Source of the DNA: an uncultured Candidatus Rokubacteria bacterium
Lineage (GTDB): Bacteria > Methylomirabilota > Methylomirabilia > Rokubacteriales > DASRDR01
Length of the DNA: 64,000 bases
Direction: 5' to 3'
NCBI GenBank assembly: GCA_963826115.1
Contig: CAWGVS010000006.1
Span: 1,152,001 to 1,216,000, forward strand
Shown here: positions 2,775 to 6,998 of the stretch, in pieces
Numbering within the stretch: position 1 is the stretch's first letter
Layout: each line of letters opens with the position of its first letter
Notes under the pieces: generated by a model
What the model saw: only the letters and a program-made list of their open reading frames with translations
Database searches by the model: none
What the model was told of the DNA's origin: nothing
Translations under genes and position numbers: made by a program

Positions 2775-3314
2775 TCAGATGACGTAGAGCCAGGCCCGGG
2801 AGGCGAGGTCCCCCGCCTTCCAGGACCCCGTCTCGCCCAGCCAGCCGGCTGCCTCGTCCCCGTCGCTCGTGCGCGCGACCGCCACCGTGCTCCCGTCCCG
2901 GAGGAACCCGCCGAAGGCGACGCGGCCGGCCCCGCGGAGCTCGACGAGCGCGAGCTGCGCCATGTCGCGGTCCGCCGTGGGGCCCTCGACGACGAGGGCC
3001 GGGCGGGTGCCGTCGAGGACGACCGGCGGCTCCGGGTCCCACGGCTCGACGAACGTCTCGAACTCGTGGGCGACGTACCCGGTCCACGCGCCGACGCGGT
3101 GGTAGGGGTCTTCCTCGATGATGGCGCGGAGCGCGCCGGCGTCCGGCACGCGGTAGAACAGCTCGGCCCGCCGCCCGTCCGGGCTCGGTCCCCCGGCCAC
3201 GAGAGCCCTGGCCGATCGGAGCCGCGCCATGCGCTCGATGTGCGCCTGGCGGACGGGCGCTCGGCGGGCCAGGTAGTCGTCGGCGCAGGCGATTTGGACG
3301 TGGACGACGGTCAT
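2775..3314 (-). CDS. YciI-like protein, apparently two tandem YciI-type domains
   Basis: RRAPVRQAH...LVAGGP...IIEEDPY is the YciI signature; second half has VAFGGFL; AGGAG RBS before ATG at 3314. Confidence 0.7.
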   Translation of the reverse strand: MTVVHVQIACADDYLARRAPVRQAHIERMARLRSARALVAGGPSPDGRRAELFYRVPDAGALRAIIEEDPYHRVGAWTGYVAHEFETFVEPWDPEPPVVLDGTRPALVVEGPTADRDMAQLALVELRGAGRVAFGGFLRDGSTVAVARTSDGDEAAGWLGETGSWKAGDLASRAWLYVI

Positions 3315-3474
3315 CGGCGCTCCTCGATCCTTCGCGAGCCCGGCGATTCCGGACGTCCGGGAGACGGCGGGCCCGCGCCTCCGCATGATACCCCCGGACG
3401 ACGGGCCGCGGGGGCCCGGGTCCCGGGCCGTCACGGGCCCGCACCGAATCGGCTCCCGCCGACGTCGTATCAGC

Positions 3475-4428
3475 GTGGAGGCCCTGGAGTTCCTCGTCCG
3501 GCACGGCTATCTCGTGCTGTTCCTGGTGGTCCTCGGGGAGCAGCTCGGCCTGCCTCTGGTCGGGGCGCCCGTCCTCCTCGCCGCCGGGGCCCTGGCCGGG
3601 ACCGGCCGGTTCTCGCTCGTCCTGGCGCTCGTGCTGGCGGTCGTCGCGTGCCTCCTGGGCGACCTGGTCTGGTTCGAGCTGGGCCGTCGCCGCGGCTCGT
3701 CGGTCCTGGCATTCCTGTGCCGCGTCGCGCTCGAGCCCGACTCGTGCGTCCGTCGCACGGAGGACGTCTTCTCCCGGTGGGGCGCGCGGGTCCTGCTGAT
3801 CGCGAAGTTCGTCCCCGGGCTCAACACGGTCGCGCCGCCGCTGGCCGGCGTCGTCGGGATCCCGCGCGCGCGGTTCCTCCGCTACGACGCGGGAGGCGCG
3901 GCGGCCTGGGCGGTCGTCTACGTCGGGCTCGGCTACGCGTTCAGCGCCCAGCTCGAGGCCGTGGCGCTCGCCCTGGCGAGCCTGGGCCGCGGCGCCGCGG
4001 TGGTGGTGGGCGTCGCGCTCGCCGGGTACGTCGTCCTCAAGTACGTGCAGCGCCGGCTGTTCATCCGGAGCCTCCGGATCGCGCGGATCGCGCCCGAGGA
4101 GCTCCAGGCGCGGATGACGGGCGGCGAGGTGCTCGTGATCGTCGACCTCCGGACGTCGGAGCACATCGCGAGCGACGGGCTCTGCATCCCCGGCGCGCTC
4201 CAGATGGACCCCGCGGAGCTCGCGCGCCGCCACGGCGAGATCCCCCGGGATCGGGAGATCGTCCTCTACTGCTCCTGACCCTCCGAGGCGACGAGCGCCC
4301 GGGTGGCGCTCCGGCTCAGGCGGGTGGGGGTGACGCGGGTGCGGCCGCTCCTGGGAGGGTTCGACGCCTGGCGCGCCGGCGGGTTCCCGGTCCAGCCCGT
4401 TCTCGGCGCCGAGAACCGCGCGGCCTGA
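3475..4428 (+). CDS. DedA/VTT membrane domain + rhodanese domain fusion, probable selenoprotein (in-frame UGA at 4276-4278)
   Basis: DedA motifs (EQLGLP, GDLVWFELGR, AKFVPG); rhodanese IVDLR...IPGA...IVLYCS-TGA-PSEATSARVALRL...VRPLLGGFDAW continues in frame to TGA 4426-4428. Confidence 0.85.
4293..4311 (+). promoter_or_regulatory. Candidate bacterial SECIS hairpin
   Basis: GAGCGCC-CGGGT-GGCGCTC: 7-bp perfect stem starting 15 nt after the UGA, loop about 22 nt downstream with G at loop position 2. Confidence 0.6.
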
Positions 4429-4439
4429 CCCGCGGCGGC

Positions 4440-6998
4440 CTACTCGCCGCGGAGGATCGGCAGCGGCTTCCGCCCGAGGAGGCGGAAGGTTCCGGCGAAG
4501 CCGACCCCCACCGCCAGCCCGATCGTCGCCAGGAGCGCCACGGCGACGGGGAGGGGGTCGAGCGCCGGGGGCACGTCGAGGACGAAGCGGAGGACCGCCC
4601 ACGCGGTGAGCGCGCCGGTCGCCGCGCCGCCGATGCCGGCCACGAGCCCGAGGCACCCGTACTCGACGGCGAACGCGCGCGCGACGCGGCCTCGCGTCGC
4701 CCCGATGGTGCGGAGGAGGGCCGACTCGTAGAGCCGCTGCGCGCGGCTCTGGGCGAGCGTCTCCGCCATCACGGTGAAACCGGCCCCCAGGACGAAGAGC
4801 GCGACCAGCCGCACCGCGACCGCGATCCGGTCGACCACCCCGGTGATGCGCTCCAGCACGTCGCGGACGGGGATCGCCGTGACGTTCGCGAAGGCCGCCG
4901 CGACGCGCTCCTGCACGACCTGGTCGGCGCCCGGCGGGACCCGCGCCGTGGCGAGGTACGCCGTCGGCGCTCCGTCGAGCGGCCCCGGCGAGAAGATCAC
5001 GAAGAAGTTCGCGCCGAGCGTCTGCCAGTCCACCTTCCGGAGGCTCAGCACCTCCGCGCGCACCGGCACGCCCTGGACGTCGAACGTGAGGGTGCCGCCG
5101 ACGTCGACGCCGAGCGCGCGCGCGGCCTCCGCCTCGACGGAGATCAACGCGCGCCCCCGGTCGCTCGCGTCCCACCAGCGGCCGCGCGTCAGGACGGTGC
5201 CGGCCGGGGACGCTTCCGCGAAGGTCAGCACGTACTCCCGCGTGACGCGCCAGGCGTCCTCGCGGCCCGCCCAGCGTTCCCGCGCGATCGGCGTCCCGTT
5301 GATCGCGCTCAGGCGGGCGCGCACGACCGGCACCAGCGCCGGCGGGGAAGCGCCGGGGACGGACTCGATCGTCCGGCGAAAGGCGTCCGCCTGGTCGGGC
5401 TGCACGTCCACGAAGAAGAAGGACGGCGCCTCGCGCCGCCGGTCGAGGTCGAGCTGCCGGGTGAGCCCGCGCTCGAGGAGCGCGACGGCGGTGAGGAGCG
5501 TCACGCCGATGCCGAGCGCCACCGTGACCCCGATCGCCTGGTTGCCGGGCCGCGTGAGCGCCCGGAGCCCGTGGCGCCAGGCGATGGAGCGCGGGGAAGC
5601 GACCGATCCGGCGACGCGCCGGAGCGCCCACGCGCCGAGGACCAGAACACCCAGCGCGCCGGCGGCGGCCCCGAGGAAGATGGCGCCGATGCGGAGGGGG
5701 CCGGCCTGCCAGAGCGCCAGGAGCGCGAGCCCCCCGGCGATCACGCCCGCGGTCGTCCACGGCCGGCGCGGGCGCACGGTCCCCGCGTCCACCGGGTGGC
5801 GGAGCAGGATCGCCGGCGGCACCGCGCGCGCGGAGAGGAGCGGCCAGAGGGCGAAGAGTAGCGTCGCCAGGCACCCGGCCAGGAGCCCGGTCAGGACCGC
5901 GGTCGGCGCGGGACGCGCCTCGAGCGCGAAGGGAACGAACGGCTGGAGGAGCGGCCCGAGGAGGAGCTGGGCGGCGGTGCCGAGCGCCGCGCCCGTAAGG
6001 CTCCCGAGAGCGCCGAGCGCGAGCGCTTGGACCACGTACACGGCCGTCAGCGTCCGCCCGCTCGCGCCCAGGCAGCGGAGGATGGCGATGGTGCCCACCT
6101 TCTTCGCGAGGAAGGCGCGGACGGCGGCCGCCACGCCGATCCCGCCGACCAGGAGGCTCGTCACGCCCACCAGGCGCAGGTAGGCGGAGAGCTGGTCGAA
6201 GAAGCGGCGGAGGCCCGGCTGCGCCTCGTCGAAGGTCGCCACCCGCACGGCGGGATCCGCCATCGCCCCGACGAGCGCGGCGCGGGTGGCGCGCGGGTCG
6301 ACGCCGTCGGGGAGGCGGACGAGCGTGCGATGACGCACGCGGCTGCCGAGCTGGACGAGCCCCGTCGTCTCGAGGCTCCGGGCGCTCAGGAGGACGCGCG
6401 GGCCCAGGGTGAAGAGCGACGCCGCGCGGTCCGGCTCCTTCCGGAGGACGCCGGCCACGGTGAAGGTCGCGTCGCCGACGAGGATCGTGTCGCCGGGCGC
6501 GACGCCGAGCCGCCCGAGGACGGCCTCCTCCACCACGACGCCGCCGTCCGCGAGGAGCCGGTCGAGCGGGCGCGCCGGCAGGGTATCCAGCCGGCCGTAG
6601 AGCGGGTAGTCACCGTCCACCGCCTTCAGCTCGACGAGGAGCGTGCGCCCCGATCCGGGGTGCCGCGCCATCCCGACGAGCTCCTTCACCCGCGCCACGG
6701 TCGCGCCGCGGCGCGCGAGGTCCTGGACCGGCCCCTCCGCCGCGGCGTCGAGGGGGCGGGCCGAGCGGAGCTCGACGTCCCCGCCCAGGAGCGCGCGGGC
6801 CTCGCGCCCGAGCGAGCGGTCGATCGACGCCGCCACGCTCAGGACGGCCACGAGCGCGCCGACCCCGAGCGCGATGCACGCGAGGAAGCCCGCGAAGTGG
6901 CGCCAGGCGCCGCGGGTCTCTCGCCAGGCGAGACCGGCGACGAGGCGCCAGGGCAGCGCGGGCGGCGCCGGCGCGCCCGACGAGACCGGTGATCTCAC
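4440..6998 (-). CDS. ybbP: ABC transporter permease, YbbP/FtsX-like
   Basis: 852 aa with two FtsX-type TM blocks; LAWRETRG, LLGGDVEL, YPLYG, PSFFFVDVQPDQ; coupled to the ATPase gene by GTGA overlap. Confidence 0.85.
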   Translation of the reverse strand: MRSPVSSGAPAPPALPWRLVAGLAWRETRGAWRHFAGFLACIALGVGALVAVLSVAASIDRSLGREARALLGGDVELRSARPLDAAAEGPVQDLARRGATVARVKELVGMARHPGSGRTLLVELKAVDGDYPLYGRLDTLPARPLDRLLADGGVVVEEAVLGRLGVAPGDTILVGDATFTVAGVLRKEPDRAASLFTLGPRVLLSARSLETTGLVQLGSRVRHRTLVRLPDGVDPRATRAALVGAMADPAVRVATFDEAQPGLRRFFDQLSAYLRLVGVTSLLVGGIGVAAAVRAFLAKKVGTIAILRCLGASGRTLTAVYVVQALALGALGSLTGAALGTAAQLLLGPLLQPFVPFALEARPAPTAVLTGLLAGCLATLLFALWPLLSARAVPPAILLRHPVDAGTVRPRRPWTTAGVIAGGLALLALWQAGPLRIGAIFLGAAAGALGVLVLGAWALRRVAGSVASPRSIAWRHGLRALTRPGNQAIGVTVALGIGVTLLTAVALLERGLTRQLDLDRRREAPSFFFVDVQPDQADAFRRTIESVPGASPPALVPVVRARLSAINGTPIARERWAGREDAWRVTREYVLTFAEASPAGTVLTRGRWWDASDRGRALISVEAEAARALGVDVGGTLTFDVQGVPVRAEVLSLRKVDWQTLGANFFVIFSPGPLDGAPTAYLATARVPPGADQVVQERVAAAFANVTAIPVRDVLERITGVVDRIAVAVRLVALFVLGAGFTVMAETLAQSRAQRLYESALLRTIGATRGRVARAFAVEYGCLGLVAGIGGAATGALTAWAVLRFVLDVPPALDPLPVAVALLATIGLAVGVGFAGTFRLLGRKPLPILRGE

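Follow-up and report, generated by a model that had tools for sequence, protein, structure and literature searches.

A DedA-rhodanese gene contains a single in-frame TGA codon

The window analyzed here, meaning the whole 64,000-nucleotide stretch of DNA, contains at positions 3475 to 4428 of the forward strand one gene, which encodes a 317-residue protein with a DedA/VTT membrane domain and a rhodanese domain. It is flanked by opposite-strand genes for a YCII-like protein (2775 to 3434) and an FtsX/MacB permease (4440 to 6998), with a URO-D gene further upstream. The open reading frame obtained with translation table 11 (start ATG 3385 or GTG 3475) stops after ...IVLYCS at a TGA at 4276 to 4278, as a preliminary description of the locus had also noted. 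Past this codon, the same frame stays open for 49 codons (PSEATSARVALRLRRVGVTRVRPLLGGFDAW...) up to a TGA at 4426 to 4428 on the plus strand, which we annotate as the true terminator and downstream of which a hairpin of the kind found at 4293 to 4311 (see below) is absent. The full coding sequence of the predicted DedA-rhodanese selenoprotein (3475 to 4428, plus strand) therefore comprises 317 codons plus the terminal TGA, and the codon at 4276 to 4278 is the only TGA within it. Comparison with homologous sequences makes GTG 3475 the likely start codon, with ATG 3385 as an in-frame alternative upstream: the N termini of homologues fall within a few residues of GTG 3475, and the 30 extra residues added from ATG 3385 have no counterpart in relatives, whose matches open at query residues 1 to 6.

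The rhodanese domain spans the TGA codon

The Pfam VTT/DedA model (PF09335) matches residues 30 to 154 (3562 to 3936, plus strand) over model positions 3 to 122 of 123, with a score of 45.9 bits against a cut-off of 33.9. In an AF2 model of the protein (pLDDT, 87.3; pTM, 0.79), helices occupy residues 2 to 23, 30 to 42, 48 to 73, 75 to 85, 90 to 112, 116 to 127, 131 to 155, 157 to 168, and 172 to 199, and the whole membrane part covers approximately residues 1 to 199 (3475 to 4071, plus strand); two of these helices, 30 to 42 and 116 to 127, are short and re-entrant-like. The rhodanese domain (residues 207 to 301; 4093 to 4377, plus strand) is recognized by Pfam (PF00581, 45.5 bits against a cut-off of 22.2), Foldseek, and NCBIfam. 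The Pfam match lies on both sides of the TGA, which is codon 268, in agreement with the earlier proposal that the 49 codons beyond it complete the rhodanese fold. The top matches in a Foldseek search of the PDB were the rhodanese structures 3tp9, 6mxv, 3nhv, and 5ve3, all matching the rhodanese part, and this search returned no match to the DedA part.

The TGA codon is conserved among relatives

We found TGA in the same alignment column at 30 of 30 relatives' loci (29 of 29 when the unpublished genome is left out). The best 45 matches among 61 relatives each contain exactly one TGA, as do 134 of the 150 matches listed for 251 genomes in the window's phylum. Of these 251 genomes, 112 have the DedA-rhodanese gene, often in two to four copies, and many Acidobacteriota have it too. 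The genome from which the window comes has a paralogue (C10:571258-572178) that reads LYCAU at this site and is followed by the same hairpin. At 80 loci from other phyla (a set drawn from Acidobacteriota, Nitrospirota, delta-proteobacteria, Rokuibacteriota, and others), the codon is TGA in 47 and a Cys codon, TGC or TGT, in 33. Relatives keep TGA at codon 268 and more distant homologues have Cys, which was one of the checks that the preliminary description had proposed. The 49 codons past the TGA are likewise open and conserved at the protein level in different phyla, down to approximately 46% identity.

TGA differs from TGC and TGT by one base, which raises the question of a sequencing or assembly error in a Cys codon. 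In Logan contigs from four public runs, no other letter occurs at 4276 to 4278 in any contig; a 260-nucleotide contig identical to positions 4088 to 4347 keeps the TGA, and so does a 1,002-nucleotide contig of approximately 95% identity. In each public run, at most 0.27 of the words sampled are present, so that parts are left without cover, and the contigs from RNA libraries are short conserved pieces with no bearing on expression or transcription. Nonetheless, given the recurrence of the same TGA within the phylum and at loci elsewhere, we consider an error at this codon extremely improbable, as had been argued before from the window itself.

A conserved hairpin follows the TGA codon

A SECIS-like hairpin, GAGCGCC-CGGGT-GGCGCTC, lies at 4293 to 4311 (plus strand), exactly as first described. 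Its conserved 17-nucleotide core (AGCGCC/CGGGU/GGCGCU, 4294 to 4310, plus strand) is located 15 nucleotides past the TGA and is lengthened in the window by the pair G4293-C4311, which gives a stem of 6 to 7 bp and a 5-nucleotide loop, CGGGU, with G at loop position 2. Bacterial SECIS elements are stem-loops that follow the UGA closely and have a G in their apical loop, and the hairpin fits this type in its spacing, stem, and loop G.

Comparative data identify this hairpin as a candidate SECIS element. The codons at +6 (AGC), +7 (GCC), and +10 (GCG) are identical at 30 of 30 loci, while other codons nearby that specify invariant residues have a third-position entropy of 1.0 to 1.7 bits. All six core pairs are present in 76 of 82 forms with selenocysteine (Sec) predicted at codon 268, and the remaining 6 Sec forms have five of the six; the complete core stem occurs in just 5 of the 37 Cys forms and in none of the 5 Glu forms. 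All 82 Sec forms have G at loop position 2. In other words, synonymous sites are frozen in the Sec forms only, and most Cys forms lack the full stem, which is the pattern of conservation that the preliminary description had asked about. The six core pairs are invariant, so the core stem offers no compensatory changes, but the optional seventh pair (of 80 in all: CG, 28; GC, 17; GU, 4; UG, 2; UA, 1; unpaired, 28) does covary, with 0 of 500 shuffles attaining the observed score. A clade without the TGA (three Ser and two Cys forms; L052 to L055 and L058) retains an intact hairpin, and therefore the hairpin is not strictly tied to the TGA. Fold energy was also considered as evidence and was rejected, with a z score of -0.68 and 43 of 200 shuffles folding equally well in this GC-rich DNA. 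An Rfam scan of positions 4150 to 4450 (E ≤ 10) returned no SECIS family and only chance-level matches (mir-671, Moco-II, and S15 leader).

The genome encodes the selenocysteine machinery

The preliminary description had called for a search for selA, selB, selC, and selD, and the genome carries all of them. The tRNA-Sec gene (selC), selA, and selB share one locus, and the selD gene itself has an in-frame TGA. We detected selA in 52 of 61 relatives; neither selA nor selB was found in four metagenome-assembled genomes (MAGs) that have the TGA form (G025, G029, G042, and G048; 89 to 100% complete).

These four MAGs are consistent with the TGA being a genuine stop that yields a DedA protein of 267 residues ending in an interrupted rhodanese domain, the 49 codons beyond it being untranslated or decaying. 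Gene callers produce just such a product, and the real terminator of the gene is likewise TGA. However, the downstream codons are open, conserved across phyla, and complete the rhodanese fold, Cys occupies the TGA column in other homologues, and the Sec machinery is present in the genome, so that termination at codon 268 appears very unlikely. Alternatively, read-through of the UGA could insert Cys, Trp, or Gly, whether by near-cognate decoding, by a suppressor, or through an altered code. While it is true that homologues function with Cys at position 268, this genome has a dedicated tRNA-Sec with selA and selB in one locus, and a hairpin with SelB-type spacing is conserved along with the TGA. 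Since TGA also terminates the gene, the code is not reassigned, and we regard read-through with another amino acid as highly improbable.

Several features by which bacterial selenoproteins are recognized, namely a conserved UGA, coding conservation downstream of it, homologues with an aligned Cys, a stem-loop, and sel genes, are found here, and they indicate that SelB with Sec-tRNA very probably binds the hairpin and inserts selenocysteine at UGA 4276 to 4278. In this mechanism, SelB and Sec-tRNA would bind the hairpin on the translating mRNA, and selenocysteine would enter at the UGA to give the loop L-Y-C266-S-U268-P. The preliminary description had called the protein a probable selenoprotein, and none of the tests that it had named, on the relatives, the sel genes, the hairpin, and the contigs, refuted it.

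Selenocysteine would be the second member of a C-x-U pair

In the HMMER alignment, Cys266 (TGC, 4270 to 4272, plus strand) falls on the catalytic-loop cysteines of 3tp9 and BpPRF (5ve3), so that it corresponds to the canonical catalytic cysteine of rhodaneses. The TGA (4276 to 4278, plus strand), very probably read as selenocysteine 268, lies two residues past it, where the loop has an insertion of two residues, which results in a C-x-U pair. The preliminary description assigned the UGA to the active-site Cys position, which is imprecise, since the canonical catalytic Cys itself is C266. The same description also took the UGA to replace the second Cys of a pair, and this agrees with the HMMER alignment. 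Its statement that Cys homologues read YCSCPNE was borne out by the full-length database relatives, of which 69 of 69 have C-x-C-P-N-E.

C266 is retained irrespective of the residue at position 268, in each of the 49 sequences tabulated and at each of the 80 loci. Residue 268, for its part, is evolutionarily labile (U, C, S, or E), with at least nine changes between U and non-U in a FastTree tree of 127 sequences. With Sec, Cys, Ser, and Glu variants coexisting at one position, the family would offer a natural experiment for asking what selenium is used for.

The DedA part contains a second motif, C-x8-C (3718 to 3747, plus strand), formed by Cys82 (TGC, 3718 to 3720) and Cys91 (TGC, 3745 to 3747) in an Arg-rich helix-turn-helix, LCRVALEPDSCVRR. 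Both residues are kept without exception in set A2 (70 of 70 sequences), in 37 of 37 Sec forms, and in 40 of 40 truncated representatives, and the motif is missing from five of six DedA-only paralogues. Within the phylum, C82 and C91 are kept in 41 of 41 Sec or Cys forms and lost in 7 of 8 Ser or Glu forms, a pattern that would suggest coupled loss of the DedA cysteines and residue 268. This coupling fails in a wider sample of 150 cluster representatives, where 12 of 15 forms without the C-x-C pair keep both DedA cysteines (3 of 15 have lost them) and 9 of 83 C-x-C forms are without one or both, and we therefore claim no coupling.

Possible functions of the DedA-rhodanese protein

Since the rhodanese domain follows the last membrane helix with six Lys or Arg residues in the flank, it would lie in the cytoplasm. 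A tentative proposal, which we hold as one possibility, is that C266 serves as a persulfide carrier with U268 as its nucleophilic partner. In this proposal, C266 would be the canonical persulfide-carrying cysteine, the highly nucleophilic U268, two residues on, could form an Se-S bond with it, and the module would accept or reduce sulfane sulfur or selenium where the DedA transporter domain faces the cytoplasm. A selenium-substituted rhodanese was reportedly described by Ogasawara in 2001.

The C-x-U rhodanese could instead be a redox or persulfide sensor that switches a DedA-type lipid or undecaprenyl-phosphate flippase, rather than an enzyme of sulfur or selenium transfer. The DedA part is most like the UptA and general DedA models of NCBIfam, though far below their cut-offs, and the lability of position 268 would fit a modulatory residue. 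We found no conserved gene neighborhood across the 80 loci, the best neighbors being nitroreductase (14 of 80) and MarR (14 of 80), followed by dCTP deaminase (13), SDR (12), YceI (11), and peptidase M50 (10); the minority neighbors of stress or redox type (nitroreductase, MarR, and YceI) are in keeping with a sensor. On the other hand, no particular substrate is supported, the canonical catalytic Cys is retained throughout, and Sec normally sits in catalytic redox sites, as is generally known and as passages of PMC9312934 indicate. We consider a sensor role rather unlikely.

In a more elaborate version of the transfer proposal, the DedA domain would be a chalcogen transporter whose substrate is thiosulfate, selenite, or a sulfane/selenide carrier, and C82-x8-C91, placed in the cytoplasm, would form with C266-x-U268 a four-chalcogen relay that captures or reduces the emerging substrate. 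Such a relay would be somewhat analogous to YeeE/TusA, a thiosulfate uptake pair. Although quite unlikely in our estimate, it would, if true, make this protein the first DedA-superfamily selenoprotein and open a direct molecular approach to the long-standing link between DedA and selenite. That link, which the preliminary description mentioned, is indeed in print (Ledgham 2005, as cited in a passage of PMC8679861).

Database annotation and significance

All 51 close database matches end at residue 267 to 269, the 69 full-length matches being Cys forms, and 40 of 150 cluster representatives stop exactly at ...[YF]C[TSAD]. With the internal TGA very probably read as selenocysteine, annotation pipelines thus truncate this protein in many bacteria from soil; the expectation that standard pipelines would do so had been voiced from the window, and close relatives in public databases do end at the TGA. 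Our literature search found no published DedA-fused rhodanese selenoprotein, although supplementary tables may list such genes, and among the papers listed none that ties selenoproteins to PF09335, VTT, or SNARE-associated domains in the sense of such a fusion. The word "DedA" has 0 occurrences in the main texts of the reviews PMC13188914 and PMC9312934, of PMC2398784 (GOS), and of PMC12013277 (deep-Sep). As relayed in a passage of PMC13188914, Deng 2026 (Cell Rep) predicted 63 selenoproteins in a Methylomirabilota MAG.

If this interpretation is correct, soil and groundwater bacteria have a widespread membrane protein that is systematically misannotated as a truncated "DedA," an annotation that hides a rhodanese domain and a selenocysteine. 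A DedA-fused architecture would then join the rhodanese selenoproteins, and the poorly understood DedA superfamily would gain a subfamily with a fused catalytic domain suggestive of sulfur or selenium chemistry. The compact, sequence-invariant 17-nucleotide hairpin, common to several phyla, would also be a handy natural SECIS for study or for searches.

Comparison with known systems

Within the DedA/VTT superfamily (PF09335; Escherichia coli YqjA/YghB, the undecaprenyl-phosphate transporters UptA, and TMEM41B/VMP1), the protein shares a VTT domain that scores above the Pfam cut-off and the two short re-entrant-like helices, and it differs in its rhodanese fusion and in the C-x8-C motif that most DedA-only paralogues lack. 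It is far below the cut-offs of both the UptA model (NF052604, 52.9 bits against 250) and the general DedA model (50.4 against 236), which separates it from the UptA and PRK10847 equivalogs. E. coli YgaP (PDB 5hbo and 5hbl) also has a rhodanese tethered to the inner membrane and is a Foldseek match to the rhodanese part, but its anchor is simple, consisting of two helices, and it has one catalytic Cys and lacks Sec. Fusion of a rhodanese selenoprotein to a membrane domain has a precedent in TsoB (NF045694), presented in a table of PMC13188914 as a rhodanese/DsbD fusion-like selenoprotein; it has another membrane partner, the motif UxxxxU, and two Sec residues, and our protein scores 14.2 bits against its cut-off of 805.

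The Cys-form orthologues have the same architecture and length, 52 to 60% identity, C82 and C91, and YC-x-C-PNE, and they differ in having Cys for Sec and in having mostly lost the downstream hairpin. They occur in Acidobacteriota, Verrucomicrobiota, Nitrospirota, and delta-proteobacteria, under the NCBI names "DedA family protein/thiosulfate sulfurtransferase GlpE" or "VTT domain-containing protein." To our knowledge, there is no experimental work on these orthologues, and our literature search found none.

The best NCBIfam match is NF041203 (rhodanese_LYCAU), a "rhodanese-related (seleno)protein" family that appears as a predicted selenoprotein family in passages of PMC13188914 and PMC9312934. 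Residues 200 to 307 align with model positions 18 to 124 of 126 at 82.4 bits against a cut-off of 115 (the two genomic copies score 78 and 79.2 bits), so by NCBI's rule the protein is not a member. Both are rhodaneses with L-Y-C-x-U, that is, with a predicted Sec two residues past the catalytic Cys (LYCSU here and LYCAU in the paralogue); NF041203 is a standalone model of 126 positions, whereas here the domain is fused behind a DedA membrane domain of approximately 200 residues with a C-x8-C motif.

Open reading frame and conservation of its in-frame TGA

The table-11 open reading frame of the DedA-rhodanese gene, which starts at ATG 3385 or GTG 3475 on the forward strand, stops after IVLYCS at a TGA codon (4276-4278), and past this codon the frame stays open for 49 further codons, up to a second TGA at 4426-4428. 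The preliminary description had proposed that this continuation completes a rhodanese domain, and Pfam searches bear this out: the product read through the TGA contains a VTT/DedA domain at residues 30 to 154 (45.9 bits; cut-off, 33.9) and a rhodanese domain at residues 207 to 301 (45.5 bits; cut-off, 22.2), with the TGA (residue 268) inside the latter. The gene stands alone, with both flanking genes, for a YCII-like protein (2775-3434) and an FtsX/MacB-type permease (4440-6998), on the opposite strand.

Relatives of the gene keep the TGA codon. Searches of 61 related genomes gave full-length matches of 50 to 77% identity, with exactly one TGA in each of the 45 best. In 30 of 30 fetched loci, one of them from an unpublished genome and excluded from later counts, the TGA occupies one and the same column of the alignment, within the motif LYC[ST]-U-P[NS]EA[TS]SAR. 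Across the phylum Methylomirabilota, 112 of 251 genomes have a match at E ≤ 1e-50; among the 150 matches listed for these 251 genomes, 134 contain one TGA (1 of these also has a TAG) and 16 contain none. Twelve of the 16 span residue 268 and encode Cys (TGC, 4 matches), Ser (TCC or TCA, 3), or Glu (GAG, 5) there. A scan of all prokaryotes, with one genome per species, found 80 loci, assigned by record title to Acidobacteriota, Nitrospirota, Verrucomicrobiota, delta-proteobacteria, Rokuibacteriota/Methylomirabilota, Dormibacterota, and others; the codon is TGA in 47 and TGC or TGT in 33, a ratio that is no measure of prevalence, since one search pattern demanded the Cys form. Many relatives have two to four DedA-rhodanese copies.

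An assembly artifact at this codon had been considered unlikely, and contigs from four public runs, aligned to 3300-4700, give no alternative letter at 4276-4278. Among them are a 260-nt contig that matches 4088-4347 without a difference and a 1,002-nt contig, about 95% identical, that spans 3376-4377. We also observed that most contigs from other samples have AA in place of TC at 4282-4283, which changes Ser270 to Asn and gives P-N-E, the family consensus.

Among the 120 best matches to 5.8 billion proteins, all 51 with 65 to 100% identity are 267 to 302 residues long, cover only 83 to 84% of the query, and are cut at the TGA; where named, they are called "membrane protein DedA." The 69 full-length proteins, all at 60% identity or less, carry Cys at 266 as well as at 268 (69/69), the C-x-C form expected of Cys homologues. 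Since 40 of the 150 top-ranked representatives from clustering at 50% identity terminate exactly at ...[YF]C[TSAD], the selenocysteine (Sec) form is diverse, and gene callers consistently cut it short. Public databases throughout carry the very probable DedA-rhodanese selenoprotein under a wrong annotation, as a truncated DedA protein.

Catalytic loop and predicted structure

The UGA had been placed at the active-site Cys. It does lie in the catalytic loop, but HMMER alignments to 3tp9 and the BpPRF fusion 5ve3 identify the canonical catalytic cysteine as C266 and reveal two inserted residues in the active-site loop, where Sec stands at +2 from C266. The predicted Sec is therefore the later residue of a C-x-U pair. 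C266 is retained in 49 of 49 tabulated sequences and in all 80 loci of the prokaryote scan. Residue 268 varies among U, C, S, and E, and a FastTree tree of 127 sequences has at least nine switches between U and non-U there; being unrooted, it gives them no direction.

An AlphaFold2 model built from an alignment of 70 sequences was confident (pLDDT, 87.3; pTM, 0.79). It places nine helices before an alpha/beta rhodanese domain, the last ending at residue 199, and two of them, 30-42 and 116-127, are short and hydrophobic, like those seen in DedA models. Foldseek matches were to rhodaneses only. Because region 70-113 contains nine Lys/Arg residues and the flank past the last helix contains six, the positive-inside rule predicts a cytoplasmic position for the C-x8-C motif (C82, C91) as well as for the rhodanese domain. 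One candidate role is to serve, on the cytoplasmic side of the transporter, as an acceptor/reductase for sulfur or selenium; a redox switch acting on the DedA transporter is an alternative candidate. The earlier-noted link between DedA and selenite is in print (Ledgham 2005, as cited in PMC8679861).

The C-x8-C motif is invariant in the 70-sequence alignment (70/70), in Sec forms (37/37), and in truncated representatives (40/40), and it is missing in five of six DedA-only paralogues. An apparent co-loss of C82/C91 and residue 268 within the phylum failed in a wider sample, where 12 of 15 forms lacking the C-x-C pair still have C-x8-C, so we do not claim a coupled relay. In the Glu-268 clade (loci L056, L057, and L059 to L061; motif YC-x-E-P[KR]E), one or both DedA cysteines are lost in all five members, and this clade seems to be a redox-inactive side branch of the family.

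A compact hairpin downstream of the UGA

The hairpin GAGCGCC-CGGGU-GGCGCUC lies at 4293-4311, exactly as first described. By folding energy it does not stand out from shuffled sequence (z = -0.68), so in DNA this GC-rich its mere presence says little. In 30 Sec forms, the stem codons +6 (AGC), +7 (GCC), and +10 (GCG) are invariant (30/30), and serine has six codons; nearby codons of equally invariant residues vary freely, with Ala +4 split between GCG (16) and GCC (14) and with 1.0 to 1.7 bits at the third position of Gly, Arg, and Pro codons. We counted the six core pairs (AGCGCC/GGCGCU) in 127 distinct sequences. All six are present in 76 of 82 Sec forms, with five in the other 6 and none at four or three, versus all six in only 5 of 37 Cys forms (five in 14, four in 10, three in 8). 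None of the five Glu forms has all six (five in 3, four in 1, three in 1), and all three Ser forms do. The hairpin is thus conserved with the TGA, as a SECIS element would be. Sec-form loops are CGGGU (40), CGUGU (23), CGUGC (9), CGGGC (6), AGUCU (2), AGGAU (1), and AGGGU (1), with G at loop base 2 in every one of the 82, and two Sec forms keep the stem despite recoded residues (S-A-S-L versus the usual S-A-R-V).

The core pairs are nearly invariant across the 82-sequence alignment and, because they almost never vary, provide no compensatory evidence. An optional seventh pair, formed by two synonymous third positions, does covary (80 distinct rows: CG 28, GC 17, GU 4, UG 2, UA 1, unpaired 28), with a score matched by 0 of 500 shuffles in a control that takes no account of relatedness. 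Seventeen nucleotides (4294-4310) make up the conserved core, a mini-hairpin that begins 15 nt past the UGA; the minimal SelB-binding element of Escherichia coli fdhF has a size and spacing in this range. No Rfam family matched the hairpin. One clade without TGA keeps the hairpin intact (L052 to L055 and L058, from genomes G201, G195, G187, G149, and G048; three Ser forms with TCC/TCA and two Cys forms with TGC), which cuts against a strict link to TGA; there the hairpin may be a relic of recent Sec loss or have a second role.

Selenocysteine machinery and other TGA-containing loci

All four genes of the Sec pathway, whose presence would be expected, were found in the source genome, G000. selA adjoins selB, and tRNA-Sec (selC; anticodon tca) is nearby on the same contig. 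selD (C5:561687-562604, forward strand, L004) carries a TGA in frame (HGAG-U-ACKLG), and a strong hairpin lies downstream of it, so the pathway itself relies on a selenoprotein. SelA is present in 52 of 61 relatives. Four MAGs with the TGA form (G025, G029, G042, and G048; rated 89 to 100% complete, in 170 to 460 contigs) yielded neither selA nor selB, and a fifth, G047, has them as fragments only. Since selA, selB, and tRNA-Sec share one locus in G000, a single unbinned contig could account for their absence from the four MAGs.

Outside the window, G000 has a second DedA-rhodanese gene (C10:571258-572178, reverse strand, L041), 53% identical, with LYCAU at the matching position and an identical hairpin 3' of its TGA. 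Another rhodanese-domain frame (C5:920567-920893, forward strand, L043), with a signal-peptide-like N terminus, an in-frame TGA in VVLY-U-A-C-PHH, and a small hairpin downstream, has a U-x-C pair, the reverse of the C-x-U order, and is possibly another, secreted rhodanese selenoprotein. A rhodanese-like frame (C5:319146-319394, reverse strand, L049) likewise contains an in-frame TGA (YCWDSA-U-DLSSR), with a GC-rich hairpin after it. In related genomes, rhodanese-domain matches with one in-frame TGA (for example, G053:C162:6149-6550, G026:C15:111131-111526, G044:C34:418-738, and G058:C33:7019-7339) sit within far longer open frames of 529 to 637 amino acids and are probably other rhodanese-fusion selenoproteins.

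Relation to known selenoproteins

Taken together, these data make it very likely that the DedA-rhodanese gene is a genuine, widespread selenoprotein gene. As read from sequence, its predicted product joins a DedA membrane domain to a C-x-U rhodanese, and the gene contains a compact, conserved putative SECIS hairpin. The best NCBIfam match is NF041203, rhodanese_LYCAU, a "rhodanese-related (seleno)protein" (82.4 bits; cut-off, 115), which a 2022 review (PMC9312934) gives as COG0607 form 2; rhodaneses that have Sec at this point in the loop were therefore already known as predicted selenoproteins. Another source, PMC13188914, lists TsoB, a rhodanese/DsbD-like membrane fusion, among selenoproteins and notes 63 predicted selenoprotein genes in one Methylomirabilota MAG. 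The main texts and abstracts that we searched mention no DedA, VTT, or SNARE-associated domain among selenoproteins. The NF041203 model has only 126 positions and so describes a small standalone protein, whereas the gene studied here adds a DedA membrane domain; the fusion is a new architecture for a kind of selenoprotein that is itself not new.
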